This document shows, piece by piece, positions 1-13,467 of a DNA stretch of 13,467 nucleotides; position 1 is the first letter of the stretch; the number at the start of each line of letters is the position of its first letter. The notes beneath the pieces are model-generated. The model worked only from the letters and a program-made list of their open reading frames with translations, did not search any database and was not told the DNA's origin. Made by a program: the position numbers and the translations under genes. Source of the stretch: Bacillota bacterium (GTDB lineage: Bacteria > Bacillota > Clostridia > Clostridiales > Clostridiaceae); assembly GCA_030705885.1 (NCBI GenBank), contig JAUZPN010000085.1, positions 1 through 13,467 of the forward strand. Direction: 5' to 3'.

Positions 1-1
1 A

Positions 2-1066
2 ACAGAAGTTCTTGGAATGGGACTTAAAGGTAATGGAACAATTCCAGCAGTATATTCAGAGAGAATTAAGCTTGCTAAGCATGCAGGAATGCAGATTATG
101 GATCTTGTTAATAAAGATATTAAGCCTAGAGATATCATGACAGAAGATGCGTTTAGAAATGCATTGACTATGGATATGGCTCTTGGATGCAGTACAAATA
201 GTATGCTTCATTTACCAGCAGTTGCTCATGAAGCTGGAGTTGAATTGAATATTGATATTGCTAATGAAATAAGCAGCAAGACACCTAATCTTTGTCATCT
301 TGCACCAGCAGGACATACTTATATGGAGGATTTAAATGAAGCTGGCGGAATTTATGCAGTAATGAATGAAATAAACAAATTAGGTTTATTAAAAACAGAT
401 TTAATCACATGTACAGGAAAAACAGTTGCTGAGAATATAAAGGGAGCTTATAATAAAAACCCTGAAGTTATCAGAACAGCTGAAAATCCATATAGCACAA
501 CTGGAGGCATAGCAGTTCTTAAAGGAAATCTTGCTCCAGATTCATGTGTTGTAAAGCGTTCAGCAGTAGCACCAGAAATGTTAAAGCATGAAGGACCTGC
601 TAGAGTATTTGATTGTGAAGAGGATGCACTAAATGCTATTAACACAGGTAAAATTGTTGATGGAGATGTAGTTGTAATAAGATATGAAGGTCCAAAAGGC
701 GGTCCTGGTATGAGAGAAATGCTTAATCCAACTTCTGCTATTATGGGAAGAGGTCTTGGAAGTACTGTAGCACTTATAACAGATGGACGTTTCAGCGGAG
801 CTTCAAGAGGTGCTTCTATAGGCCATGTTTCACCAGAAGCAGCAGTAGGAGGAAATATTGCTTTAGTTCAAGAAGGAGATATAATTCAAATTGACATAAC
901 AGCAAATACAATTAATTTTGTTATAAGCGATGAAGAATTAGAAAGAAGAAGATCTAAATGGAAGCCAAGACAGCCTAAAATTACTACAGGATATCTTGCA
1001 AGATATGCAGCTTTAGTAACTTCAGGTAATAGAGGAGCTATTTTAGAACTTCCAAAGAATAAATAA
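2..1066 (+). CDS. ilvD: Dihydroxy-acid dehydratase, C-terminal ~355 aa (5'-truncated by the window edge)
   Basis: The frame is open from nt 2 to the stop at 1064-1066. The translation contains IlvD/Edd family segments ([54 protein letters not shown]). A terminator hairpin follows. Confidence 0.9.
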
Positions 1067-1082
1067 AAAAATATGAAAAAAG

Positions 1083-1116
1083 AAGCTTTTCCGATGTTTT
1101 GGAAAGCTTCTTTTTA
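1083..1116. terminator. Bidirectional rho-independent terminator shared by convergent ilvD (+) and the WYL operon (-)
   Basis: AGAAGCTTTTCC / GGAAAGCTTCT inverted repeat with an 8-nt loop, flanked by an A-run on the left and a T-run on the right. It is positioned immediately after both stop codons. Confidence 0.55.
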
Positions 1117-2109
1117 TGGTATACTTTTATTTATCATACTTGAACTGAAAAGTTCTTTCTGCCTTATTAACCTTTCTTTAATTTTAATTAGAAAGCTTTC
1201 AGGACCTATTACTTTTATAACTGGACCAAAGGATAATATAGTAATTAGAAGTTCTGTTTCATCATGTTTGTCATAATAAATATAATTTATATATTTATCG
1301 CTGGTTTCATCATATTCTGTACGCTTTTCATAATTTGCAAAGTGCAGCATACATCTTTCAACAGCATTTCTTTCCTTTGATATTTCAATTACAACAGGCT
1401 CACTGCACTTGTTCATTTCTATATACTTTTCAAAGGAAATGCAGCCATCATAAATTTCTTGTGATGGTGATATAGTTGATATTCTTGAAATGTTTATTAT
1501 TGCAGAAGCTGTAATTTTACCATATTTAATTCTAACTGCATATAGTCTGAACTTATCATTTTTGCTGGAGTATTCTAATTTACAGGGTATAAAATTTCCA
1601 GTAATTCTTCCTGATTTTAAGCTTTCGAAAGAAATTGTTATAACCTTTTTGCTTTTTATTGCAGATAATATTTGATGAAAATTATTTATATAAGCTTCAT
1701 CTGAATAATTATCTCCATCACTGAAAGTATCAAAATAATAAAAGTCTTCCATATTAAATAATGGCTCAACATCTTTAAGCTGTTCTTTTAAATATTCAAT
1801 ATCATTGTTCCCTAAAAAGAGTAGTATTCTTTTGTCGGTTAACAATGCTTTTATCCAGGATTTTTCTAATATAGTTAGTGGCATTTTAATGTTACCATTT
1901 ATTTTGGAAAGATATTTATTATCGTGTTTTTCAAACAAATTCCATTCATTATTTATAAACTTTGGCAAAACATAAAAAGCACTTTCAGAGAAAGCACCAT
2001 CTTCAATAATTTTAGACATCATTTCTTCAGTAATTGGATTGTGTGCTTCTTTTAAAATGTTAGAAACAACTGTATAATAGCAACTGTAAATTTCAGAAAA
2101 TAGCTCCAT
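1114..2109 (-). CDS. HTH-WYL-WCX family transcription regulator (PafC-like paralog, 331 aa)
   Basis: It has a WYL-type core (KFRLYAVRIKYGKITASAIINISRISTI, matching the ..rwYLvay..-..FRLdRI.. pattern). The C-terminus has a WCX-like extension (ELLITILSFGPVIKVIGPESFLIKIKERLIRQKEL). The ATG lies 3 bp downstream of the stop of the upstream paralog, so translation is coupled. Confidence 0.6.
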   Translation of the reverse strand: MELFSEIYSCYYTVVSNILKEAHNPITEEMMSKIIEDGAFSESAFYVLPKFINNEWNLFEKHDNKYLSKINGNIKMPLTILEKSWIKALLTDKRILLFLGNNDIEYLKEQLKDVEPLFNMEDFYYFDTFSDGDNYSDEAYINNFHQILSAIKSKKVITISFESLKSGRITGNFIPCKLEYSSKNDKFRLYAVRIKYGKITASAIINISRISTISPSQEIYDGCISFEKYIEMNKCSEPVVIEISKERNAVERCMLHFANYEKRTEYDETSDKYINYIYYDKHDETELLITILSFGPVIKVIGPESFLIKIKERLIRQKELFSSSMINKSIP

Positions 2110-2112
2110 AGT

Positions 2113-3345
2113 TTAATCAACTCCATACATGTTAAACATTCTATTTATATCACGGTATAGCTTTTGTTCTATAGTTTTGTTTGAGCATTCAAATGAAACT
2201 ATTCTGCCAATAAAACTCTTAATCCAAGGAAGAACTTCATTTCCATCGAATACCTCCTTAGCGTATATATATAAATTAGGTTCCAGCCTTTCAACTGTAC
2301 CATTCATACCTTCGAGTTTTAACCTATTTATAATATAAGATTCAAGTTCTTCATCAATGTATAGCTTCATTTTCAATATGCTGCCTCTGGAATTGTTACC
2401 AAATGAAACCCCCCAGCATTTATCTAAATTATTATTTAATCTTGATGTATAGAGATCATAATTTTCACATTTATTAAGTATTTCAACTGATTTAATATAA
2501 TCGAGCCTGTAATTTACAAATCTCTTTCTTGCTTCATTATAAATAGCAATATACCTACGCCCGGTTCTGCTGCTTATAAATATTTTAAGTGGGATGCCTT
2601 CATATTTTAGTATCAATTCAGTTTTAATACTTTGATTGATAAAACTTATTCTTTTCTTTGTTTTTATAGCTTCTAAAATATTATAAAGAATTTTATCCTC
2701 TAAAGTATGTACAATATAATTATGTTTAAAAATAAAAATGCTGTTTTTTTCATTTTCATTAGACATAAGGTAGCTGCCAATAACTCCAAAAGGAGCAGTG
2801 CCCTGGTAATATTTTATGGCATTTAATAAAGCTTCAGAGTTTACTGATATATTTGAAATATATTGTTTTGATAAACTATAATGCAAAGCTTTACCTGTTT
2901 TGCAGGCTGTAAGAATTCCATCCTTTACATATTCATTAGCTTTTATCCTTACAGTTTGTATATCAAAACAAATATCACTTTTTTTACATATATTATTTGT
3001 AATTTCATCAGCTGTAAGACAGGAGCTTGTACTTAATGTATCCAATATATAAAAATGAAGCATTATATCATTGGAGGTAAAGCTTTTTGATCTCCAAGCA
3101 TAGTAAAAAGGGTTTTCACTTATTTTTGAACTGTCAAGGCTTATAAAAACACGCTTGCCTCCCTTAAAGTTTTCCCATTTTATATAATTTCCAAGATAAC
3201 TTTCAATTCTTCTCTTTTCATTATCATAAGTTCGGCAGCTCTTTTTTGTAAAGTCTTTTCTTGTTTTAAAACCATAAATATAAAAATCGCGCATATAATC
3301 TCTTATTTTATCAAAGTTCTTAACTAGTTCTGAAAACTCAGCCAT
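2113..3345 (-). CDS. HTH-WYL-WCX family transcription regulator with N-terminal extension (PafB-like paralog, 410 aa)
   Basis: It has a strong WYL signature (GRRYIAIYNEARKRFVNYRLDYIKSVEIL). A WCX-like C-terminus is present (LPWIKSFIGRIVSFECSNKTIEQKLYRDI). A DeoR/HTH_11-like segment is present (KKSCRTYDNEKRRIESYL; ILDTLSTSSCLTADEITNNI). An SD-like AAGGCGGTG sits 6 nt upstream of the ATG at 3345. Confidence 0.6.
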   Translation of the reverse strand: MAEFSELVKNFDKIRDYMRDFYIYGFKTRKDFTKKSCRTYDNEKRRIESYLGNYIKWENFKGGKRVFISLDSSKISENPFYYAWRSKSFTSNDIMLHFYILDTLSTSSCLTADEITNNICKKSDICFDIQTVRIKANEYVKDGILTACKTGKALHYSLSKQYISNISVNSEALLNAIKYYQGTAPFGVIGSYLMSNENEKNSIFIFKHNYIVHTLEDKILYNILEAIKTKKRISFINQSIKTELILKYEGIPLKIFISSRTGRRYIAIYNEARKRFVNYRLDYIKSVEILNKCENYDLYTSRLNNNLDKCWGVSFGNNSRGSILKMKLYIDEELESYIINRLKLEGMNGTVERLEPNLYIYAKEVFDGNEVLPWIKSFIGRIVSFECSNKTIEQKLYRDINRMFNMYGVD

Positions 3346-3411
3346 ATTTTCACCGCCTTTTTAACTAATTTGAACTAACCATCCATGATGGTGGCAGCAT
3401 AACCACGAATA

Positions 3412-3432
3412 AAAATGGTGACAAGCCATTTT
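3412..3432. promoter_or_regulatory. Candidate dimeric-regulator operator (perfect 7-N7-7 inverted repeat), proximal copy
   Basis: AAAATGGtgacaagCCATTTT lies about 65 bp upstream of the WYL operon start codon. Its centre is about 62 bp (roughly 6 helical turns) from the second copy at 3474-3494. Confidence 0.35.
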
Positions 3433-3473
3433 CTAATTAACCACCCATGTTGGCTGCAGCACAACCACGGATA

Positions 3474-3494
3474 AAAATTGCAGCAAGCTATTTT
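3474..3494. promoter_or_regulatory. Candidate operator, distal copy (imperfect inverted repeat)
   Basis: AAAATTGcagcaagCTATTTT has one arm mismatch and occupies the same position within repeat unit 2. Confidence 0.3.
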
Positions 3495-3720
3495 TTAATT
3501 AAATATTATAAGGGAAGCATAGATTATAGGTATAATTTTAGCAGTTTAGTGCAATAAAAACAATTAGTGAGTTAATTTCGCAACTTTTTTTATATGATAA
3601 AATTATTTGCTTATGGTAATATTTATCCATGGAAGGTGAGAAAAATAATTCCATAATAAAATGTTCTCTTACTATGTTTGATAACAAAGTTTTACTAAAT
3701 TATTAAAATAAGATTTTGTC

Positions 3721-3768
3721 CGATATCATTTATAAATTAAATTGAACTAAATGTGACGAGGAAAGTAT
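3721..3768 (+). repeat. Partial copy (right ~48 bp) of the ~103-bp inverted-repeat element
   Basis: cgatatcatttataaattaaattgaactaaatgtgacgaggaaagtat aligns with the right half of the copies at 5065-5167 and 8502-8604. Confidence 0.55.
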
Positions 3769-3772
3769 GATT
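3743..3772 (+). promoter_or_regulatory. Sigma-A-like promoter for rtcB embedded in the partial element (TTGAAC-N18-TATGAT)
   Basis: -35 TTGAAC is at 3743-3748, followed by an 18-bp spacer and -10 TATGAT at 3767-3772, which is 45 bp upstream of the rtcB ATG. Relative to the full copies (TGGAAC-N19), this copy has a G-to-T change that improves the -35 and a 1-bp shorter spacer. Confidence 0.4.
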
Positions 3773-3816
3773 AAATGTAGCCAAACAAAGTATACTTAAA
3801 GAAAGGAAGTGTCTAA

Positions 3817-5049
3817 ATGTTTGTTATAAACAATGAACAAACTAAAAAACCAATAAAAATATGGCTGGAAAATGAAGAAAGTTTAGAGGATACTTGTCTA
3901 GAACAAGCATATAAATTATCACAGCTGCCATTTATTCATAAATGGGTAGCACTTATGCCTGATACTCATGCTGGAATGGGTATGCCTATAGGCGGAGTAA
4001 TTGCTTGTAAAAATGTTATTATCCCAAATGCAGTAGGAGTAGATATAGGATGTGGTATGTCTTTCATTGGTACAGATATTAAAGTAGATGATATAAAAGG
4101 TATAACTACACCAAATGGAAGTTTGTTTAAAGGAATTATTGGTGATATTTTAAGAAATGTACCTGTTGGCTTTGCTCATCATAAAACAGCAAAACCATGC
4201 GATGCATTAGATAGAGCAAAAGAAGAAATGGATAAATACAAAAGTCAGCCTGAATTAACTGGTCAAATAGAGGATGGATATTTTCAGGTAGGAACTTTAG
4301 GAGGAGGAAATCATTTTATTGAAATACAGGAAGATGAAGAAGGTTGTCTTGGAATAATGCTTCATTCAGGAAGTCGTAATTTTGGTAAACGTATATGTGA
4401 TTATTTCAATAAAGCTGCTAAAGAGCTAAATGAAAAATGGTATTCTAAAGTACCTCCAGAAGATAGATTAGCTTTTCTTCCAGCAGACACAAAGGAAGGA
4501 ATTGACTATATAAACTGGATGAATCTAGCCTTAGATTTTGCAAAAGAGAATAGAGATAGTATGATGGTAGAAATAAAAAATGTTCTAGAAAAATGGATAA
4601 GTAAATATACTAAGATTAAATTTAAATATACTATAGAAGTAAACTGCCACCATAATTATGCTAGTATTGAAAACCATTATGACAGCAATGTATGGGTTCA
4701 CAGAAAAGGGGCAATAAGAGCAAGAGAAGGAGAAATTGGAATAATACCAGGGGCTATGGGGTCTTACAGCTATATTGTTATAGGTAAAGGAAATCAGGAA
4801 AGCTTCTATTCATGTTCTCATGGTGCAGGAAGACGATACTCAAGGAAAGCAGCAATGGAAAACTTTACAGTAGAACAAGTTATGCTGGATTTAAAACAGC
4901 AAAATGTTGTCCTTGGTAAAACATCTAAAAAGGATGTACCTGAGGAAAGCAGATTTGCTTATAAAGATATTGAAGAAGTAATGAAATCTCAAACAGAATT
5001 AGTTACTCCAATTAAAAGACTCAAAACATTGGGAGTGGTTAAGGGATAA
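3817..5049 (+). CDS. rtcB: RtcB family RNA 3'-phosphate (2',3'-cyclic phosphate) to 5'-OH RNA ligase, 410 aa
   Basis: Metal/GTP-site motifs of RtcB are present: DTHAGMGMPIGG, GCGMSF (Cys), GGGNHFIEIQ, HSGSRNFG, NCHHNYA, SHGAGR. Size is bacterial-type (~408 aa). RBS AAAGGAAG lies 8 nt upstream. Confidence 0.92.
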   Translation: MFVINNEQTKKPIKIWLENEESLEDTCLEQAYKLSQLPFIHKWVALMPDTHAGMGMPIGGVIACKNVIIPNAVGVDIGCGMSFIGTDIKVDDIKGITTPNGSLFKGIIGDILRNVPVGFAHHKTAKPCDALDRAKEEMDKYKSQPELTGQIEDGYFQVGTLGGGNHFIEIQEDEEGCLGIMLHSGSRNFGKRICDYFNKAAKELNEKWYSKVPPEDRLAFLPADTKEGIDYINWMNLALDFAKENRDSMMVEIKNVLEKWISKYTKIKFKYTIEVNCHHNYASIENHYDSNVWVHRKGAIRAREGEIGIIPGAMGSYSYIVIGKGNQESFYSCSHGAGRRYSRKAAMENFTVEQVMLDLKQQNVVLGKTSKKDVPEESRFAYKDIEEVMKSQTELVTPIKRLKTLGVVKG

Positions 5050-5064
5050 TATATTTATTATAAG

Positions 5065-5167
5065 TATACTATCCTCGGTCACAAAGTTCCAATAAATTTC
5101 CAAAAGAAGCTTCACCTCGCTATCATTTACAAATTAATTGGAACTAAATGTGTCCGAGGAAAGTATA
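5065..5167 (+). mobile_element. ~103-bp MITE-like element with imperfect 19-bp terminal inverted repeats, copy B
   Basis: TIRs are TATACTATCCTCGGTCACA ... TGTGTCCGAGGAAAGTATA. A nested inner inverted repeat is present (AGTTCCAATAAATT ... AATTAATTGGAACT). It is about 93% identical to the copy at 8502-8604. The right end carries TGGAAC-N19-TATAAA, an outward promoter-like module. Confidence 0.55.
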
Positions 5168-5330
5168 AATAAGATTATTACAGATTTGACAAGTGTCATC
5201 TGTTTAATATAACTGAAATTTTTTATGCTAAGGCTTATGATGCCTTGCGGTGCTTGAGTCTATGACGATAAAGTATACCGAAATTTCAGGTTTTGTTGTG
5301 AATGACGAAGGTTCGATTCCTTTATTGCCA

Positions 5331-5403
5331 TGTGCAATTAGCTCAGAGGTAGAGCATCACCAGATTAAATTGGATTTTGGAGGTTCGAATCCCCCACAAA
5401 GAC
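5331..5403 (+). ncRNA. tRNA-like element: canonical D-arm and T-arm, degenerate anticodon and acceptor regions (tRNA mimic or tRNA-Lys/Asn-derived pseudogene)
   Basis: The D-arm GCTC-AGAGGTA-GAGC is at 5341-5355, preceded by T8-A9. The T-arm GGAGG-TTCGAAT-CCCCC is at 5379-5395 with one stem mismatch. The anticodon-arm position (TCACC-AGATTAA-ATTGG) cannot form a 5-bp stem. The 5' and 3' acceptor strands are not complementary, and there is no encoded CCA. The anticodon-arm 3' half resembles tRNA-Lys(UUU) (TCAATTGG vs TAAATTGG). A further T-arm-like fragment (GAAGG-TTCGATT-CCTTT, 5308-5324) and a GC-rich 5-bp hairpin (AAGGC-ttatgat-GCCTT, 5230-5246) lie upstream. Confidence 0.5.
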
Positions 5404-5418
5404 TTTCCCGTCTTTTTT
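5398..5418 (+). terminator. Small rho-independent terminator closing the tRNA-like transcription unit
   Basis: AAAGAC-tttccc-GTCTTT is followed by TTT. The stem is weak and AT-rich. Confidence 0.35.
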
Positions 5419-5462
5419 AATATTTTAATACCTATGAACGCAGCCTGCTGTGTTTATAACAT

Positions 5463-5482
5463 AACTGCAGCCTGCAGTTTTT
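5463..5482 (+). terminator. Second terminator-like hairpin (AACTGC-agcct-GCAGTT + TTTTT)
   Basis: The hairpin contains two PstI palindromes (CTGCAGCCTGCAG) followed by a T-run. It is preceded by a near-duplicate GCAGCCTGCTG motif at 5441-5452. Confidence 0.3.
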
Positions 5483-5709
5483 AAGATATCACTGTTTGTA
5501 TTTTACTTTCATTTCTTAGGCAGAAATCTTAATTTATACTATGTTTAGTCATGAAATTTCAATAAATTTCAGCTATACATAGTACAATTAGATAACATAA
5601 GGAACCAAAGTAATTTACAACAGCTCAATTTAAACTCCGCTTCAGTTATGTGGTATTAAGATATAGTTCTAAGCTATAAATTAAAGTATCTAAAAAGGGG
5701 TTGTTAAAG

Positions 5710-6810
5710 ATGGATCATATTATAAATGAAAATCAGAGAGGTTATTTGTTTAGAAATGGATGCTTTGTAAAACTATTATCATCAGGAAAATACAACTTTC
5801 CAAGATTTCTTGGATATAGAGTTGAAAGTGCATTGATAAACGATGAAGCTATTTCAGCAAGTGTTAATATAAATGTACTCTTAAAAGATAAATTATTTTC
5901 AAAAAGCATAACTAGTATAATGGTGGTTGATAACAAAATAGCTGTTCACTTTATAAATGGAAGAATAAAAAATATATTGCAGAGCGGAGAGTATTATTTC
6001 TGGAATATTTTTAATAAGCATACTTTTGAAATAATTGATATGTCAAGTACTGAAGTTTCAAAGGAAATAGATAGAACAATTTTTAATTATATTCCTATAA
6101 AGTATTATACAAAAATAATAGTACCTGATGGACAAAAAGCAATATTATATTTTGATGGAAAGCTTAACAAAGAACTTAGCTGTGGCACTTATTTTTACTG
6201 GAATGTTAAAGAACAAGTATCATATCAGCTTGTAGATATGAGGCTTCAGCAACTTGAAATTTCAGGGCAGGAAATATTAACTACAGATAAGGTAAGTCTT
6301 AGAATCAATTTTAACTGCATTTATAGAATAAAGAATGCTGTTAAAATATTATCTGAAATAAGAGATTATAAGGTTCAGATTTACAGTCTTATTCAGCTTG
6401 TTCTTAGAGAATATGTTGGAGGCTTTAAATTTGATGAGCTTTTAGATCAAAAGGAAGAAATTGCAGCATTTGTGCTTACTAAATTGAAAGAAAAACAGGA
6501 TGAATATTTTATAGAATTTACTACTGCAGGTATAAAGGATATTATACTTCCAGGCGAAATTAAAGAAATTATGAATACAGTACTTATTGCAGAAAAGACA
6601 GCACAGGCAAATGTAATAACAAGGCGTGAAGAGGTTGCATCTACTAGAAGCCTTTTAAATACTGCAAAGCTTATGGATGAAAACAAAACTCTATACAAGC
6701 TCAAGGAAATGGAGTATATTCAAAAAATATGTGATAAGGTTGGAAGTATATCATTAGGCGGCGGAGAAAATCTCTTGAACCAGCTTAACGAATTGCTGTG
6801 CCAGAAATAA
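5710..6810 (+). CDS. SPFH/band-7 domain protein (YdjI/COG4260-like) with a triplicated N-terminal beta-repeat
   Basis: The central region resembles the SPFH fold (QEILTTDKVSLRINFNCIYRIKNAVKILSEIRDYKVQIYSLIQLVLREYVGGFKFDELL), followed by a coiled-coil-like tail. Three N-terminal repeats match G-x-Y-x-F/Y-W-N...VE/D (res 29-45, 95-112, 161-178). I chose the ATG at 5710 with GGGG 9 nt upstream. The ORF track begins at TTG 5701. Confidence 0.65.
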   Translation: MDHIINENQRGYLFRNGCFVKLLSSGKYNFPRFLGYRVESALINDEAISASVNINVLLKDKLFSKSITSIMVVDNKIAVHFINGRIKNILQSGEYYFWNIFNKHTFEIIDMSSTEVSKEIDRTIFNYIPIKYYTKIIVPDGQKAILYFDGKLNKELSCGTYFYWNVKEQVSYQLVDMRLQQLEISGQEILTTDKVSLRINFNCIYRIKNAVKILSEIRDYKVQIYSLIQLVLREYVGGFKFDELLDQKEEIAAFVLTKLKEKQDEYFIEFTTAGIKDIILPGEIKEIMNTVLIAEKTAQANVITRREEVASTRSLLNTAKLMDENKTLYKLKEMEYIQKICDKVGSISLGGGENLLNQLNELLCQK

Positions 6811-6862
6811 ACAGGATATCTTAAATATTTTTAATTGTATAAGCTGATTAAAAAATCTCATG

Positions 6863-6891
6863 TTGAAGTAATCACACATAAGTTGTAGAAT
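6863..6891 (+). promoter_or_regulatory. Candidate promoter for the CPBP gene (TTGAAG-N17-TAGAAT)
   Basis: The hexamers were read from the sequence. GTGAGGT RBS lies 7 nt before ATG 6947. Confidence 0.3.
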
Positions 6892-6946
6892 AATTATATA
6901 TAATTCAAATGGTATAAATAAAATTTATTTTAAGTGAGGTTAATAT

Positions 6947-7933
6947 ATGAAACCTGTTTTTCGCTCAAATTTATTTGCATGTATCCTTATTTTTCTCTAT
7001 GTTTTTGCAGGAGGTTTTGTTCTTGTACGCCTTCATATTCCAAATTACATACTTATCGCTCTTGCAGAAGTCCTATTTCTCCTTGTACCTACTATAATAT
7101 ATTTTTATATTACAAAATTGTCTGTGATCAATACATTAAGACTTCATAAGATTAATATTAAGAGTATAGGAGTAGTTATTTTAATTGTAGCATGCTGCTT
7201 TCCTATTGCAACATTTGCATCATTAGTAACACAGCTCTTTTTTACTAATAATACTGCAAAGGTAATGAATTCGTTTATGTCGCTTCCGCTTATTTTACTT
7301 ATATTGATAACTGCAGTAACACCTGCTGTGTGTGAGGAAGTTACTATGCGTGGGGTTGTACTTTCTGGATATAAAAATGTGGATATAAAAAAGGCTGCAA
7401 TAATGAATGGACTTATTTTTGGATTGTTTCATATGAACCCAGACCAGTTTTTATATGCTTTTGCGTTAGGTGTTATTTTTGCATATATTGTTGATATAAC
7501 AAATTCTATTTTTTCCACAATGATTGCCCATTTTACATTTAATGGTTCACAAACTGTAATGGCTTGGCTTGTAATTAAGTTTTCTCCTTTTTTAAATCAA
7601 GGAACAAAAACTAATGCAGAAACTAGTTTTAGTCAATATTCATTACATCTAAAAGTTATTATGCTAAGTTTTTCATTTGCTTTTGCAGCAGGAAGTGTTG
7701 TACTTGTTGTTTTATTGCTTAAATTATTAAAATCAGTTAATAAAGATAAAATAGCAGAAAAATATGGTAATGGTTTTGAAAATAATGAAGACATATCTGA
7801 GAACAATGAAGTAGGATTATTATATAATAATTATAAACCTAAAAAGGAGAGAGTAGTAAATCTGCCTTTTATATTGATAGTACTTTTATATATTGTTTAT
7901 ATTGGATGGCATTTTTCAAAATTTGCAGCATGA
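6947..7933 (+). CDS. CPBP family intramembrane glutamic endopeptidase (CAAX protease/Abi family), 328 aa polytopic membrane protein
   Basis: The three CPBP signature motifs are present: EExxxR (CEEVTMRG), FxxxH (FGLFH) and HxxxN (AHFTFN). Hydrophobic helices run throughout. Confidence 0.8.
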   Translation: MKPVFRSNLFACILIFLYVFAGGFVLVRLHIPNYILIALAEVLFLLVPTIIYFYITKLSVINTLRLHKINIKSIGVVILIVACCFPIATFASLVTQLFFTNNTAKVMNSFMSLPLILLILITAVTPAVCEEVTMRGVVLSGYKNVDIKKAAIMNGLIFGLFHMNPDQFLYAFALGVIFAYIVDITNSIFSTMIAHFTFNGSQTVMAWLVIKFSPFLNQGTKTNAETSFSQYSLHLKVIMLSFSFAFAAGSVVLVVLLLKLLKSVNKDKIAEKYGNGFENNEDISENNEVGLLYNNYKPKKERVVNLPFILIVLLYIVYIGWHFSKFAA

Positions 7934-7975
7934 TTTTAAAATACAGTTGAGAATTGAGAGTGGAGAAACATTAAA

Positions 7976-8020
7976 AAACAAAGTTCAATTTTGGAACTTT
8001 ATGACCTAGCATAGTATAAT
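7976..8020 (+). repeat. Degenerate fourth copy of the element right end (fused inner inverted repeat AGTTCAA-ttt-TGGAACT plus TTGGAA-N18-TATAAT)
   Basis: ttggaactttatgacctagcatagtataataa aligns with copy C ttggaactaaatgtgaccaaggaaagtataataa. The -35/-10 spacing is good and the module points toward ileS. Confidence 0.4.
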
Positions 8021-8057
8021 AAATTTATAGGAATTATTAAGAAACTATATTTAGGTA

Positions 8058-8085
8058 TTGACAATACAAATATTAATATTATAAT
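8058..8085 (+). promoter_or_regulatory. Strong sigma-A consensus promoter upstream of the ileS leader (TTGACA-N16-TATAAT)
   Basis: TTGACA is at 8058-8063 and TATAAT at 8080-8085. With ATAATA at 8081-8086 the spacing is 17. Confidence 0.5.
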
Positions 8086-8194
8086 ATTTGTATGAATGAA
8101 TAAAATAGTATACTTTTCTCGAACACTTTTAATTCCGCTTAATTAGAAAATAGCTTGTCACTGTTTTCATCCGTAGTTGTGATACAATCATCAT

Positions 8195-8350
8195 GAATGG
8201 TTAATTTATAAATGATAACGGAGAGAATCTTCTTTACAGAAGTTTAGCAGAACTTTGTGACTAGAGATAGTATAAATTAAAGCTGTGAGCAGGAAAAGTA
8301 CTAAAAATTGATACTTAAAGAGAGTGGGGTTAGGTGGAAACCCATAGTAA
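8195..8350 (+). promoter_or_regulatory. T-box riboswitch-like leader, Stem I region plus first T-box-like sequence
   Basis: GGAGAGA is followed by AUC (Ile codon, 8227-8229). The segment CUAGAGAUAGUAUAAAUUAAAGCUGUGAGCAGG resembles the conserved distal Stem I platform of T-boxes (cf. glyQS CUAGGAUAGUGAAAGCUAGAGG). UUAGGUGGAAACCC at 8330-8343 resembles the T-box consensus UUAGGGUGGNACC. No terminator follows this copy. Confidence 0.4.
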
Positions 8351-8501
8351 GTTTTTAGGAAAATCACCTGGGAGTGGAAAGCTGAATAGTAAACTCATGT
8401 TAATTGGATATTTTATAATACATTTTTCTTGAATATATTTAATTTATAAATAACAGCATAGAGAAGATTTTTAAAATTAATGAGATTTTGTGTTTAATAG
8501 A

Positions 8502-8604
8502 TATACTATCCTCAGTCACAAAGTTCCAATAAATTTCTAAAAGAAACTTCACATCGCTATCATTTAAAAATTAATTGGAACTAAATGTGACCAAGGAAAG
8601 TATA
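8502..8604 (+). mobile_element. ~103-bp MITE-like inverted-repeat element, copy C, inside the ileS 5' leader
   Basis: It is about 93% identical to copy B, with TIRs TATACTATCCTCAGTCACA ... TGTGACCAAGGAAAGTATA. The right end carries TGGAAC-N19-TATAAT pointing at ileS. Confidence 0.55.
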
Positions 8605-8689
8605 ATAATAGTCCAAATTTAAGAGTTTTAGTAGGTGCATCCGTAATCCTGCGTTAAGGGATAGAGTATGTTAGTGCTTGAAAAAATGC

Positions 8690-8743
8690 TGTTTTAGGTG
8701 GTTTTGTGAAGTTAGCTTCATCCTATTAGGATGGAGCTTTTTT
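8690..8743 (+). terminator. T-box-type antiterminator/terminator attenuator immediately upstream of ileS
   Basis: A second TTAGGTGG (8694-8701) is followed by terminator AGCTTCATCC-tatta-GGATGGAGCT and TTTTT (8714-8743). The T-box-like sequence overlaps the 5' arm of the terminator, as expected for mutually exclusive folds. ileS starts at 8818. Confidence 0.5.
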
Positions 8744-8817
8744 GTGTAATTTAAGCACATTACTTAATATAAAAACAATCAGTAATTGTTTAGTTTAATA
8801 AGAAAGGGGAAAATTAT

Positions 8818-11800
8818 ATGTACAAAAAAGTTGACTCAACAAGAAGTTTTGTTGATATGGAAAAAGAAGTACTAAAGCTATGGCAGGAAAAAGATATAAT
8901 CCAAAAAAACTTTGATTTGAATAAGGATGGAGAATATTTTACATTTTATGATGGACCTCCTACAGCAAATGGAAAGCCTCATATAGGTCATGTTATAACA
9001 AGAGTTATGAAGGATTTAATTCCTAGATACAAGGTTATGAAAGGTTATAAGGTTTTAAGAAAGGCAGGCTGGGATACTCATGGACTTCCAGTAGAATTGG
9101 AAGTTGAAAAGTCTCTTGGAATTTCAGGAAAGCCTGAAATAGAAGAATATGGAGTAGAAGGTTTCATAAAAAAATGTAAAGAAAGTGTATTTACATATTC
9201 AAGTCTTTGGAAGGATATGTCCGAGAAGGTTGGCTTCTGGGTAGACATGGAAAATCCTTATGTAACATATCATAATGATTATATTGAATCAGAATGGTGG
9301 GCTCTTAAAAAAATTTGGGATAAGGGACTTATTTATAAAGGTCATAAAATAGTGCCATATTGTCCAAGATGCGGAACCGCTCTTTCATCTCATGAAGTTG
9401 CTCAAGGCTATAAAGATGTAAAAGAAACTTCAGTATATGTTAAATTTAAAATAGTAAATGAAGATAAATATATATTAGCATGGACAACTACTCCTTGGAC
9501 ACTTCCAAGTAATGTAGCACTTGCTATCAATAAAAAATATGAATATGTTGAAGTAATAAATAATGATGAACATTTGATTCTTGCTAAATCATTATTAAAT
9601 AAATTAGATGGTGAATATGAAATTGTAAGGGAATTCCTTGGTGAAGAATTAGTTGGAACTCAATATGAACAGCTATTTAAGTTTGCAAAACCTGATAAGA
9701 AAGCTTTTTATGTGGTTCATGCAGATTATGTAACACTTACAGATGGTACAGGTGTAGTTCATACTGCTCCTGCCTATGGTGAAGATGATAATCTTACTGG
9801 TAAGAAATATGATTTACCATTAATCAACTTAGTTGATGCTGAAGGTAAATTTGTAGATGAAGTTGAACCTTGGAAAGGTATGTTTGTTAAAACAGCAGAC
9901 CCTAAGGTAATAGAGTTTATGAGAGAAAATGGAATACTTTATAAAGCTGAGAAGTTTACTCACTCTTATCCTTTCTGCTGGAGATGTGATACACCGCTTT
10001 TATACTATCCAAGACAGAGCTGGTTTATAAAAATGTCTTCTTTAAGAGACAAACTCGTAGCTAATAATAATACTGTTAACTGGTATCCTGACAATGTTAG
10101 AACAGGAAGATTTGGTAACTTTATTGAAAATGTTATTGACTGGGGTATAAGCAGAGAAAGATATTGGGGAACTCCAATACCAATTTGGGAATGTGAATGT
10201 GGTCACAGAGAATGTATAGGAAGCATTGAAGAACTAAAGCAAAAAGGAATTAATGTATCTGAAAATATAGAACTTCACAAACCTTATATTGATGAGGTTA
10301 AATTAACCTGTCCTCACTGTGGAAAATTAATGAAGAGAATTTCAGAAGTTATAGATTGCTGGTTTGATTCTGGTTCTATGCCTTTTGCACAGCATCACTA
10401 TCCTTTTGAAAATAAAGAAATTTTTGAGCAGAATTTCCCAGCACAATTTATTTCAGAAGCAGTGGATCAAACAAGAGGATGGTTTTATACATTAATGGCT
10501 ATATCAACAATTTTGTTTGATAAAGCACCTTTTGAGAACTGTGTAGTTTTAGGTCATATTCTTGATAAAAATGGACTTAAGATGTCAAAGCATAAGGGAA
10601 ATGTATTAAGTCCATTTACAGTACTTGAAAATGAAGGTGCTGATGCAACAAGATGGTATTTTTATACTGCAAGTGCACCATGGCTTCCTTCAAGGTTTTA
10701 TGAAGATGCTGTAATAGAAGCTCAAAGGAAATTTATAAGTACATTATGGAATGTATATTCCTTCTATGTGCTTTATGCAGAAATAGATAAATTTGATCCA
10801 ACTAAATATGAAGATTTTGTTTCATCAAATGTAATGGATAAGTGGATAATGTCAAGACTTAATACTCTTGTAAACAAAGTTGATGAAGATCTTAACGGCT
10901 ATAGAATAACTCAGGCTGCACTTTCAATAGAAGATTTTACAGATGAGCTTTCAAACTGGTATGTTAGAAGAAACAGATCAAGATATTGGGTTGAAGAATT
11001 AACAGAGGATAAAATAGGTGCATATGTAACCTTATATAGGGTGATTACTACATTATCCATAGTTTCAGCACCATTTGTTCCATTTATAACAGAAGAAATC
11101 TATCAGAATTTAGTGACAGCTCTGAATAAAAATGCTCCTGAAAGTGTTCATCTGTGCAAATGGCCTGAAGTGAAGGATAATATAATTGATAAAGCTTTAG
11201 AAGCTGAAATGGAAGAAGCTTATAAAATCGTTAAGCTTGGAAGAAGTGCTAGAAATGGTGCTAATATTAAAAACAGGCAGCCTCTTTTAGAAATGCTTCT
11301 AAGTGTAGATACATTACCATCATATTATGGGAATATTATAAAGGATGAACTTAATATTAAAGAAGTAAAATTTGGTGCAGACCTTTCAAAATATGTTAAT
11401 TTTGAAATTAAGCCAAACTTACCTGTGCTTGGTAAAGCTTATGGCAGATTTATTCCTGGCATAAAGAAAGAAATAGCTGCTATGAACCAAATGGAGCTTG
11501 CTTCAAAAATTCAAGCTGGAGAAACTGTTGTAATTAATGTTCAAGGTACTGAAATTGAACTTAACAGTGAAAAGCTTCTTATAACTATGCAGGGACTTGA
11601 AGGCTATGCATTCGCAGGAGAAGGACATATAGGTGTAGTTTTGGATACAACTATAACTCCTGAACTTAAGGAAGAGGGACATCAAAGAGAAATCATAAGC
11701 AAGATTCAAAATATGAGAAAAGAAAAAGGCTTTGAAGTTGCTGATAAGATTAATCTTTATGTAAGTGATAATGAAATGCTTGAAAATGTAGTTAAAAAAT

Positions 11801-11922
11801 TTGAAGACTTTATTAAAAAAGAAACACTTACAGTTGGAGTAACCTATGGCAGTGAAAGACAATATACTGAATGCAGCATTAATGGAGAAAAATTTAATAT
11901 CGATGTAGAAGTAGTTAAGTAA
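8818..11922 (+). CDS. ileS: Isoleucine--tRNA ligase, type 2 (eukaryote-like, 1034 aa, no C-terminal zinc-knuckle)
   Basis: Class I aaRS motifs are present: HIGH ([13 protein letters not shown]) and KMSKS (KMSKHKGN). A CP1 editing domain, tRNA-binding WCISR-like ([14 protein letters not shown]) and the IleRS anticodon-binding region are recognisable. The C-terminus has a single Cys, so there is no CxxC...CxxC. A strong RBS is present: AAGAAAGGGGAAAATTAT-ATG. Confidence 0.95.
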
Positions 11923-11931
11923 AAAACAATT

Positions 11932-11967
11932 GTATCCCTAGAATGCAAGTTCTAGAGATACTTTTTT
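11932..11967 (+). terminator. Rho-independent terminator after ileS
   Basis: GTATCCCTAGAA-tgcaag-TTCTAGAGATAC forms a 12-bp stem with one mismatch, followed by TTTTTT. Confidence 0.65.
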
Positions 11968-12035
11968 GTTAAGAAAGCTGTCAACAATGAAAACATATTA
12001 AAATATGAAGAAATGGAGATGTGGAAGCAAAAAAT

Positions 12036-13070
12036 ATGAGAAAAATATCAATTGAACCATTTGCAAAGCAGTTAATTGATGATATGTATAAAAACTATGA
12101 TTACACTATCGAAGATTTCAGCTTAATTAAAGGAATAAGTGTACCTTGGGGACTTTCTAAAATTCTTCAAAATGGAACAAAAATTAATATACTTTTTTTA
12201 AGTCACGATGATGATATCCTAAATATCAACTCTGACAGCAATATATATGATATTATTGATGTAAAAAAAGAGAAAATTGTTAAAATAATATTGATAGGAG
12301 AAGATATTGATGATAGTGAGGTAATAAGTAAATTAAATTATCTCAGTGATTTTAAGGCAATTGAGAATAATTCAATTATAATAGACTTGATACATAGCAC
12401 AATTCAAATATCAGACAACAGTATCGAGGAAATAGCAAAACAAATAAATAGTATTGTTAGTGTAAACAGCAGGGCCAAGCAGAATAAAATAAATTCTGCT
12501 GCAACATATACACTAATTGGCATTAATATATTTATGTTTATTATTTCAATCATATTAAATGGCGGGAATCCTATAGATATAAATAATTATGTATTAATTA
12601 TGCTTGGAGCAAAATATAATACGGCTATAATACAAGGACAATGGTTTCGTCTATTAACATGTACATTTTTACATGGAGGACTTGTACATATTGCTGCAAA
12701 TATGTATTCCTTATATTCAGTAGGGCCACTAGTTGAATCTTTATATGGAAAATATAAATATATATTTATGTACTTAATAGCAGGTATTGTATCATCATTA
12801 TTTAGTTTTCTATTTAGCACCGGCATATCCATAGGAGCATCTGGCTCTATATTTGGTCTTTTGGGAATTATTTTAGTGTTTGCTTTAAAGAAAAAAAAGA
12901 CACTTGGCAGAAAATTTTTAATGAATGTATCATCAGTAATAGCAGTAAATTTATTAATAGGCTTTAGCCTTCCAGGAATTGACAATTTTGCTCACTTAGG
13001 AGGATTGTTTGCAGGTATATTTTTAGCATTAATAATAAGAACATCAGAGAACACAAACAGGGACGGTTAA
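12036..13070 (+). CDS. Rhomboid family intramembrane serine protease with ~160-aa N-terminal cytoplasmic domain
   Basis: The catalytic Ser motif GASGSIFGLLG and catalytic His motif AHLGGLFAG are present, along with YRLLTCTFLHGG (WR-loop-like) and six hydrophobic helices in the C-terminal half. I preferred ATG 12036 (GGAAG 9 nt upstream) over the GTG at 12021 used by the ORF track. Confidence 0.8.
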   Translation: MRKISIEPFAKQLIDDMYKNYDYTIEDFSLIKGISVPWGLSKILQNGTKINILFLSHDDDILNINSDSNIYDIIDVKKEKIVKIILIGEDIDDSEVISKLNYLSDFKAIENNSIIIDLIHSTIQISDNSIEEIAKQINSIVSVNSRAKQNKINSAATYTLIGINIFMFIISIILNGGNPIDINNYVLIMLGAKYNTAIIQGQWFRLLTCTFLHGGLVHIAANMYSLYSVGPLVESLYGKYKYIFMYLIAGIVSSLFSFLFSTGISIGASGSIFGLLGIILVFALKKKKTLGRKFLMNVSSVIAVNLLIGFSLPGIDNFAHLGGLFAGIFLALIIRTSENTNRDG

Positions 13071-13289
13071 CAACTTATCATCTTTAGCGAGCAGGGTAGG
13101 GTAGGGTAGGTAACAGGGTAACAGGGACGGTTAACAACTTATTAGCTTTAGCGAGTAAGATGTTAACCGTCCCTAATTTCATGCAAATGATGACTATTCA
13201 TATTTGCCAAAGAAATGATAACCGTCCCTGATACTGATACTGATACTGATATAGCCATTCTCAATTGTCAAAAAAATGATAACCGTCCC
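13058..13289. repeat. Cluster of five GGGACGGTTA(A/T)C motifs (2 forward, 3 reverse) plus a 34-bp direct repeat, a 14-bp perfect hairpin, a G-run array and (GATACT)4
   Basis: Forward copies are at 13060 and 13124, within the 34-bp direct repeats CAGGGACGGTTAACAACTTATYAKCTTTAGCGAG. Reverse copies are at 13162, 13217 and 13277. AGGGACGGTTAACA-24nt-TGTTAACCGTCCCT has perfect 14-bp arms (13123-13174). GGGTAGGGTAGGGTAGGTAACAGGGTAACAGGG is at 13093-13127. GATACT x4 is at 13230-13253. Confidence 0.7.
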
Positions 13290-13291
13290 CA

Positions 13292-13467
13292 CTAGTTGCT
13301 CATTCTCTTTTGTTTTATAATAACTAGTGTGATCATAAGTATTGCTGCTGCAAAGGCGATCATTATAAGCATGTTGTTAAATATAGGTAGAAGGTTTTCG
13401 GTATTGAAGTTAGTTAAATTTCCTATAGTGTTGTTTGATTTTACAAACCAGTATGTTGGTGTAAAAC
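13292..13467 (-). CDS. C-terminal fragment of an unidentified minus-strand ORF (hydrophobic helix then KQKRMSN), running off the window
   Basis: The reverse frame is open from the window edge to the TAG at 13294-13292, with translation ...NNMLIMIAFAAAILMITLVIIKQKRMSN*. It is too short to identify. Confidence 0.25.
   Translation of the reverse strand, partial: FTPTYWFVKSNNTIGNLTNFNTENLLPIFNNMLIMIAFAAAILMITLVIIKQKRMSN

Follow-up and report, generated by a model that had tools for sequence, protein, structure and literature searches.

A conserved pair of WYL-domain genes divergent from an RNA-repair operon in Clostridia: probable subunits of one transcription factor

In the present study a stretch of 13,467 nucleotides (nt) from a member of the Clostridiaceae (Bacillota bacterium, assembly GCA_030705885.1, contig JAUZPN010000085.1, positions 1 to 13,467; hereafter the window) was analyzed with regard to two adjoining open reading frames (ORFs) of the minus strand, ORF A and ORF B, and to the rtcB gene encoded divergently from them. 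The two proteins are probably subunits of a single factor built of winged helix-turn-helix (wHTH), WYL and WCX domains, which would activate the divergent RNA-repair operon upon binding of a ligand. The likely function of the pair is suggested by this divergent operon together with a conserved element of 22 base pairs (bp) in the intergenic region, both of which were absent from the initial annotation of this DNA. That annotation had described the genes as a translationally coupled pair with helix-turn-helix (HTH), WYL and WCX domains in a low-GC, Clostridium-like genome, and coordinates, junction and fold models agree with this description. The two genes, their junction and the domains of their products are:

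3345..2113, minus strand: ORF A, upstream gene of the pair, 410 amino acids (aa)
3052-3345, minus strand: N-terminal domain of A, aa 1-98, basic and family-specific
aa ~99-165 of A, minus strand: wHTH, with the recognition helix Q130-V-R133-x-K135-x-x-E138-Y139
2470-2697, minus strand: WYL domain of A, aa ~217-292
2116-2388, minus strand: WCX domain of A, aa ~320-410
2107..2124, minus strand: A/B junction, with GGAG at 2124-2121, the stop codon TAA at 2115-2113, ACT, and the start codon ATG at 2109-2107
2109..1114, minus strand: ORF B, downstream gene of the pair, 331 aa
1894-2109, minus strand: wHTH-like domain of B, aa 1-72, acidic
aa ~76-153 of B, minus strand: helical linker
1462-1650, minus strand: WYL domain of B, aa ~154-216
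1117-1404, minus strand: WCX domain of B, aa ~236-331

Homologue searches returned 1681 relatives of A and 885 of B, mostly from the same contigs, so that both are regarded as genuine genes and not as chance ORFs. They lie in the same frame, the stop of A and the start of B being separated by a 3-nt gap (TAA-ACT-ATG), and GGAG is read directly in the window 11 nt ahead of the ATG of B, a layout consistent with translational coupling.

On the level of sequence the PADLOC WYL model PDLC01652 matched A at 213-382 (E 2.4e-9) and B at 136-314 (E 9e-10), and Pfam WYL (PF13280) matched A at 219-289 slightly over its curated cut-off (E 5.8e-5) and gave no match on B. AlphaFold2 monomer models, with input alignments of 102 homologues for A and 116 for B, reached a mean predicted local distance difference test score (pLDDT) of 74.5 and 88.7, respectively, and both comprise a wHTH, a helical linker, a WYL barrel and a WCX domain. 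The wHTH of A is formed by helices 91-106, 112-123 and 129-142 and a hairpin at 145-158 (pLDDT >80), and the corresponding domain of B by three helices and a hairpin within residues 2-68 (pLDDT 84-94). WYL beta-strand blocks span 231-292 in A and 157-215 in B, and the sequence strings which the initial annotation had quoted as WYL cores are these strands. Alternating beta and alpha elements of the WCX domain were modelled with high pLDDT at 322-407 in A and 239-327 in B. In Foldseek searches both models aligned full-length, over ~300-358 columns, with DriD, PafBC, CapW, BrxR and WYL1. The lowest E values were 3.7e-10 (A) and 1.2e-09 (B), and the probability was 1.00 for the top matches; DriD and PafBC were the best matches, CapW and BrxR followed with E ~1e-6 to 1e-7, and the structures of the DriD C-terminal domain (7TZV, 9CU3) were matched as well. 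As these full-length alignments reach the WCX domains of DriD and PafBC and the domain is present in both models, the WCX-like tails proposed earlier are borne out; Pfam WCX (PF25583) gave a faint match on a natural A-B fusion protein, P0252. Profile and fold searches led to WYL proteins without pointing to an unrelated family, and to judge from the models A and B belong to the wHTH-WYL-WCX class (class A of Muller et al. 2019).

The initial annotation had also regarded the two genes as paralogues. BLASTP aligned A and B with E 0.02 across 44 aa, and in profile-profile comparison (hhalign) the WYL region alone aligned (E 0.0015, probability 16%); as paralogues the two are only remote. The extra N-terminal segment of A, noted before as ~90 aa, is real, measures ~95-98 aa and is the best-conserved part of the protein. 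Sequence searches found no Pfam or PDB relative for it and no likeness to the N-terminus of B. When the 98 aa were compared with 1.84 billion representative proteins, 676 clusters (50% identity) were retrieved, and in nearly all matches listed the domain begins at most ~65 residues from the N-terminus; it is confined to this family and always fused to the wHTH.

The pairing of A and B was followed in 80 related genome loci with flanks of ±6 kb, which belong to Clostridiaceae, Lachnospiraceae, Oscillospiraceae, Defluviitaleaceae and further groups of Clostridia. In 79 loci A is immediately followed by B, and in the 80th the contig stops short of where B would lie. Tractable species that carry the pair include C. 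acetobutylicum (NL50_09280/09275) and C. pasteurianum. Among the 80 loci with both genes (window included) the distance from stop to start is -5 to +5 nt in 49, 6-35 nt in 17 and 36-210 nt in 13, and one locus carries an insertion of ~3 kb between the genes (a Coprococcus-like locus, L072 7263-10252). Furthermore, seven of the best 150 clusters with the A N-terminal domain are natural A-B fusions of 728-855 aa, in which, by BLASTP, residues 1-408 of A map onto the first half and residues 1-320 of B onto the second. These are the proteins P0252, P0253, P0261, P0264, P0289, P0344 and P0347, with a fusion gene at L082 4097-6487, and their linkers range from none to ~90 aa. The fusion gene of P0261, found on two contigs, is divergent from rtcB and Band_7 and has the same upstream element as the separate genes. 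Pairwise distances of A and B also co-vary more with each other than either does with those of RtcB (partial r 0.65, against 0.42 and 0.29), a result that is suggestive only.

The second line of evidence is the element between A and the repair genes, for which the following features of the window are needed:

3598..3577, minus strand: putative A/B operator ATCATATAAAAAAAGTTGCGAA, 22 bp, non-palindromic, the sole copy in the window and without mismatch
3594..3622, plus strand: predicted promoter of the rtcB operon, with -35 ATGATA at 3594-3599, a 17-bp spacer and an extended -10 TGGTAATAT at 3614-3622
3817..5049, plus strand: rtcB, encoding RtcB RNA ligase (Pfam E 9e-114), divergent from A

Each rtcB-A intergenic region has one common block, while the remainder varies. 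The consensus of this block, ATCATnTAAAAAA(A)GTTGCGAA, is nearly invariant across families, and 71 distinct sites anchored on GCGA read ATCATtTaAAAAA(a/g)(G/t)TTGCGAa; conservation reaches 100% in many columns and is lacking in the flanks. All 71 sites are non-palindromic and keep one orientation relative to A; in the window, 3 of 200 shuffles matched the operator. The distance from the element to the ATG of A is variable (13 to 915 nt), whereas its spacing to a motif on the repair-gene side is fixed: ATnnTAcCA, found there at a constant distance, reads TGgTAnnAT on the opposite strand and thus as an extended -10. If a 17-bp spacer is assumed, the -35 of the repair promoter is ATGAT(A/T), which is weak and lies inside the element, and the element itself comes to lie at about -30 to -52, with TTCGCAAC and a T-tract at about -36 to -52. 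The element as a sigma-54 promoter was ruled out by the missing GG at -24.

An exact-pattern scan of metagenome contigs gave 120 operator matches. In 62 of these A lies to the right at a distance of at most 1.3 kb, and the remainder are mostly flanked on the left by rtcB, SPFH or DUF2828 genes. About 29 matches are without A, RtcB, SPFH or DUF2828 nearby, nearly all of these are without the fixed-distance -10, and they are best read as chance. By these contexts the element is specific to this regulatory cassette, and the 120 matches yielded no additional member of a wider regulon. A second copy of the element was found 41 nt away in three loci, and the Lachnospiraceae-type locus L076 possesses three copies, at 1464, 3788 and 5787 (plus strand), one of which lies 34 nt upstream of a 583-aa ORF (3822-5573) without Pfam match, a possible extra regulon member.

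The third line of evidence is the nature of the divergent genes. Over 81 loci the first divergent gene encodes RtcB in 49, a DUF2828 + DUF7788 protein in 13 (followed by RtcB in five) and an SPFH protein in seven; it is unrelated in six and a one-off uncharacterised ORF in two (L002, L076), and the flank is too short in four. Hence 69 of the 77 loci with sufficient flank show a neighbour of RNA-repair type. The DUF2828 + DUF7788 (von Willebrand factor A-like) partner of ~500 aa stands alone or ahead of RtcB behind the same operator and -10 (L019, L028, L032, L034, L035, L041, L042, L044, L061, L065, L072, L075 and L078); it may represent a Ro60-like RNA-quality-control module, but a PDB sequence search made to see whether DUF2828 is a Ro60/TROVE relative gave no match. 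In L002 (3881-5524, minus strand; Clostridium muellerianum) the divergent ORF of 547 aa resembles the RtcB N-terminus in its first ~25 residues and has no Pfam or RtcB match in the remainder, which may point to a remnant or to gene replacement. Among the unrelated neighbours are recA in L064 (4606-5700, minus strand) and kinase or leucine-rich repeat/zinc-ribbon genes in L038 and L049.

In the window rtcB is likely the first regulated gene, and it is followed by two further components:

5277..5396, plus strand: tRNA-like or YrlA-like non-coding RNA, between rtcB and the SPFH gene
5701..6810, plus strand: SPFH/Band-7 gene (Band_7 E 4e-28), third component of the RNA-repair operon

The gap of 650 nt between rtcB and the SPFH gene houses the RNA, which matched Rfam YrlA with 42 bits (E 2e-7), under the gathering score of 69, and gave a partial tRNA match and no ARAGORN call. 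It carries two T-arm-like GGUUCGA(A/U)UCC motifs and a D-arm-like UAGCUCAGAGGUAGAGC, and it has homologues in at least 10 other related loci, of which that in L015 scores over the Rfam threshold for tRNA. As minimum free energy folding was not significant, the tRNA-like call is founded solely on the covariance-model matches. Burroughs and Aravind (2016) predicted an RNA-repair system of RtcB, Band-7 and b7a-tRNA (quoted in bioRxiv 10.1101/312249). The window operon has all three components of the system as it is given in that quotation, and the RNA at 5277-5396 is probably their 'Band-7-associated tRNA'.

The two proteins differ in the charge of their domains. In A the N-terminal domain (1-98) is basic (mean net charge +5.6, mean isoelectric point (pI) 9.4) and the wHTH (99-165) about neutral (mean pI 6.2), with an invariant recognition helix QxVRxKxxEY. 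In B the HTH-like domain (1-72) has a mean net charge of -2.8 (-5 in the window protein), a mean pI of 5.4 and a third helix without any conserved basic residue; the domain has the HTH fold, but its acidity makes DNA binding doubtful. The WYL domains of both have a mean net charge of ~+7 and a mean pI of ~10. In PafBC it is the HTH of PafB that reads DNA, while the HTH of PafC, with an acidic helix 3, contacts sigma domain 4 (PMC8635444). By analogy this split of roles would fit A and B, with A on DNA and B on sigma.

A comparable asymmetry appears in the WYL groove, where weak WYL-profile alignments set A GRRY...RLDYI in a consistent register against PafB GRWY...RLSRI, and B NxxRI against BrxR VLTRI. 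The key WYL arginines of PafB are R211 and R214 (PMC11804915). Where PafB has both, A retains just the first (R280 in 102/102, with Y or H at 283) and B just the second (R209 in 112/116, with N206 in 115/116). Besides R280, the invariant basic WYL residues of A comprise the G262-R263-R264 motif; in B R188 (115/116) is nearly invariant like R209, and K186 occurs in 105/116. Such groove changes, namely W to R in GRRY and an arginine pair split across two subunits, could reflect a change of ligand.

Taken together, a mechanism may be proposed in which A and B form a heterodimer, most likely held via the WCX domains. The wHTH of A, perhaps aided by the basic N-terminal domain, would read the asymmetric element, so that the bound site overlaps the weak -35 at its constant distance to the extended -10. 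The acidic HTH-like domain of B, unlikely to be placed on DNA, would probably contact RNA polymerase or sigma as PafC does. Both strongly basic WYL domains would sense single-stranded nucleic acid derived from damage, and the ligand-bound complex would recruit RNA polymerase and switch on RNA repair. Of this scheme the domain folds, the conserved pairing, the natural fusions, the linkage to RNA-repair genes and the element with its promoter geometry are observed, and heteromer formation, binding of A/B to the element, activation in place of repression and the identity of the ligand are inferred.

Activation is favoured since the fixed-distance site over a weak -35 resembles DriD sites (PMC13004042), and since the HTH of B resembles that of PafC and the closest structural matches, DriD and PafBC, are activators. 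DriD of Caulobacter crescentus, which ranks first or close to first among the structural matches of A and of B, binds over a poor -35 at a fixed distance to the -10; it differs in being a homodimer (PMC13004042), in its single-stranded DNA (ssDNA) ligand and in its regulon, the DNA-damage response. The structures considered in this comparison were PDB 8TP8 and 9PFQ for DriD, 6SJ9, 7P5X and 9FND for PafBC, and 7TB5, 9C5G, 7QFZ and 7T8K for CapW/BrxR. The sites of DriD are palindromic, as are the operators of CapW and BrxR, which are bound by homodimers.

Several observations weigh against the reading of A and B as one activating factor. The connection of the element with A/B is drawn from co-occurrence, and another factor could bind it; operator copies also lie beside rtcB, SPFH or DUF2828 genes where A is absent within 1.6-8 kb (e.g. 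L095, L111, L121). Conversely, the six A-B loci with unrelated neighbours (L038, L048, L049, L054, L055 and L064) are without the operator and may form a sub-branch with a different target. Contact between A and B is deduced from synteny and fusions, and it is a guess that the A N-terminal domain serves as a further module in contact with DNA, because this domain was modelled at low confidence (pLDDT 32-60). Promoters with an extended -10 can function even if their -35 is poor and may need no activator, so that an operator over the -35 fits a repressor equally. Finally, the nucleic-acid ligands of characterised WYL transcription factors are all ssDNA, and PafBC is not activated by single-stranded RNA (ssRNA) (PMC11804915).

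The strongest rival, to which we give roughly one chance in five, is accordingly that the same two-subunit factor sits on the same operator as a repressor over the -35 and is released by a WYL ligand, by which the rtcB operon would be de-repressed. The element indeed covers the -35 position ahead of a TGnTAnnAT motif able to work without a good -35, and CapW and BrxR, which are among the structural matches, share the wHTH-WYL-WCX fold and are encoded adjoining the operon they control; CapW is released by ssDNA (PMC11662680). Yet most of the element lies upstream of the -35, to about -52, and off the -10 and the start site, it is asymmetric and not palindromic like the operators of CapW and BrxR, and in the fold searches the activators DriD and PafBC ranked above these two. 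CapW and BrxR differ further as homodimeric repressors (PMC11662680) of defence systems (CBASS or BREX) and not of RNA repair, and the acidic HTH of B is like the sigma-contacting HTH of PafC (PMC8635444).

It seems much less probable that A and B are independent homodimeric WYL regulators in a common operon, with different targets or ligands. Characterised WYL factors outside PafBC are all homodimers (PMC11804915), A and B are highly dissimilar, and in the 13 loci with gaps of 36-210 nt and the one with the 3-kb insertion the genes are set apart. Seven divergent natural fusions and the near-obligate co-occurrence in 79/80 loci speak against it, as do the single asymmetric operator per locus, where two palindromes would be expected, and the acidic HTH of B without a basic recognition helix.

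The initial annotation had recognised the signature of PafBC. PafBC and its orthologues are the sole heterodimeric WYL proteins reported so far (PMC11804915, 2025), and the Arthrobacter PafBC is a natural fusion (6SJ9). Tandem differing HTH-WYL-WCX genes, fusions in some species, matching full-length folds, a non-palindromic motif, one acidic HTH and two basic WYL domains are common to PafBC and A/B (PMC8635444, PMC11804915, PMC6789036). The likeness does not extend to orthology. A true PafBC orthologue, governing an SOS-independent DNA-damage regulon in Clostridia with an incidental rtcB linkage, would account for architecture and gene order as in PafB-PafC and for recA as divergent neighbour in L064, and rtcBA is induced during DNA damage in Salmonella. 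We consider it improbable in the extreme. Single WYL sequences retrieved nothing useful from the PDB and full-length profiles of A and B gave marginal matches. Profile matches to PafBC chains had E 0.07-2, where the lowest value, 0.068, came from the WYL domain by itself and the others were >=0.8. Sequence homology between PafB and PafC is close (PMC6789036), whereas the paralogy of A and B can hardly be recognised; A possesses the extra conserved N-terminal domain, and the phylum is Bacillota and not Actinobacteria. Instead of the Pup-proteasome locus the context is rtcB, tRNA-like RNA and Band-7 or DUF2828: pafA, Pup and proteasome genes are absent nearby, the neighbours being ilvD and rtcB in the window and rtcB, SPFH and DUF2828 in related loci, with an RNA-repair-type divergent gene in the 69/77 loci given above, and L064 is without the operator. 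The element over the -35 is also unlike the PafBC motif tGTCgg-N10-tA-N3-T, which is a -26 element (PMC8635444). By sequence and context A/B would therefore best be described as PafBC-like, outside the PafBC orthologous group.

The suggestion that A and B might be an enzymatic or toxic effector and no regulator was rejected as the least credible of all: the N-terminal 95 aa of A are without recognisable family and poorly modelled, fusions of WYL domains with helicases and nucleases are known (PMC6789036) and a Cas3c match turned up in the PADLOC search, but Pfam, NCBIfam and PADLOC detect no catalytic family, each model superposes over its full length on proteins that are transcription factors and nothing else, with all confidently modelled segments being wHTH, linker, WYL and WCX, and the N-terminal domain of A, which is small and basic, is in all cases joined to the wHTH.

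As for the activating heterodimer, its functional analogue is likely RtcR of Proteobacteria, a dedicated divergent regulator of the RtcB operon with a nucleic-acid-sensing ligand domain (PMC4012209, PMC7790460). The two are unrelated in build: RtcR consists of CARF, AAA+ and HTH domains and depends on sigma-54, whereas A/B would have a WYL sensor and a predicted extended -10 of housekeeping-sigma type. WYL1 binds ssRNA. A further step, which we regard as tentative, is to see in A/B the Firmicute functional counterpart of RtcR and the first WYL factor that senses damaged RNA, such as tRNA halves or further cleaved ssRNA species, by means of a PafBC-like, asymmetric mechanism with a sigma contact. 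Among WYL factors one is known to bind cyclic di-GMP (PMC11880434). In the literature searched, which lay outside Burroughs and Aravind (2016), no WYL regulator of rtcB in Firmicutes and no second heteromeric WYL family was found.

If true, A/B would be a second, independently diverged two-subunit WYL family besides PafBC, distributed over Clostridiaceae, Lachnospiraceae, Oscillospiraceae and related groups with many gut bacteria, and the missing regulator of RtcB-type RNA repair where the WYL pair stands in for RtcR. The cis-element and promoter geometry is unusually clean. Questions raised are which signal turns on RNA repair outside Proteobacteria and if the WYL domain of a transcription factor can read RNA damage.

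Of the remaining features around the gene pair, three concern its own transcription unit:

3535..3563, minus strand: predicted promoter of the A-B operon, with -35 TTGTTT at 3563-3558, a 17-bp spacer and an extended -10 TGCTAAAAT at 3543-3535
3373..3496, minus strand: tandem 62-nt repeat in two copies, 79% identical, within the predicted 5' leader of ORF A
1075..1110, minus strand: terminator-like hairpin GAAGCTTTCC-N8-GGAAAAGCTTC followed by a T run, directly past the stop of B

The promoters of both operons are predictions, that of the rtcB operon from conservation; for the A-B promoter a TGnTAAAAT counterpart of the extended -10 is present in related Clostridiaceae loci. The hairpin, read by eye and not flagged by a program scan, would close the A-B operon, facing the convergent ilvD. 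The 62-nt repeat is lineage-specific and outside the conserved system: a 96%-identical relative (L081) carries three copies (1770-1844, 2069-2143 and 2131-2205, including one copy on the rtcB side), and no other related locus contains it. No Rfam family corresponds to it, and an exact-pattern metagenome scan found none. As a structured RNA it was unsupported (fold z-score -0.52, no Rfam family, a single relative), and one possibility is a small mobile or repetitive element peculiar to this lineage. Window positions 3339-3363, at the start codon and ribosome-binding site of A, and 3843-3867, at codons ~10-17 of rtcB, form an inverted repeat of 25 nt (80% complementary), which is probably a chance match in AT-rich sequence.

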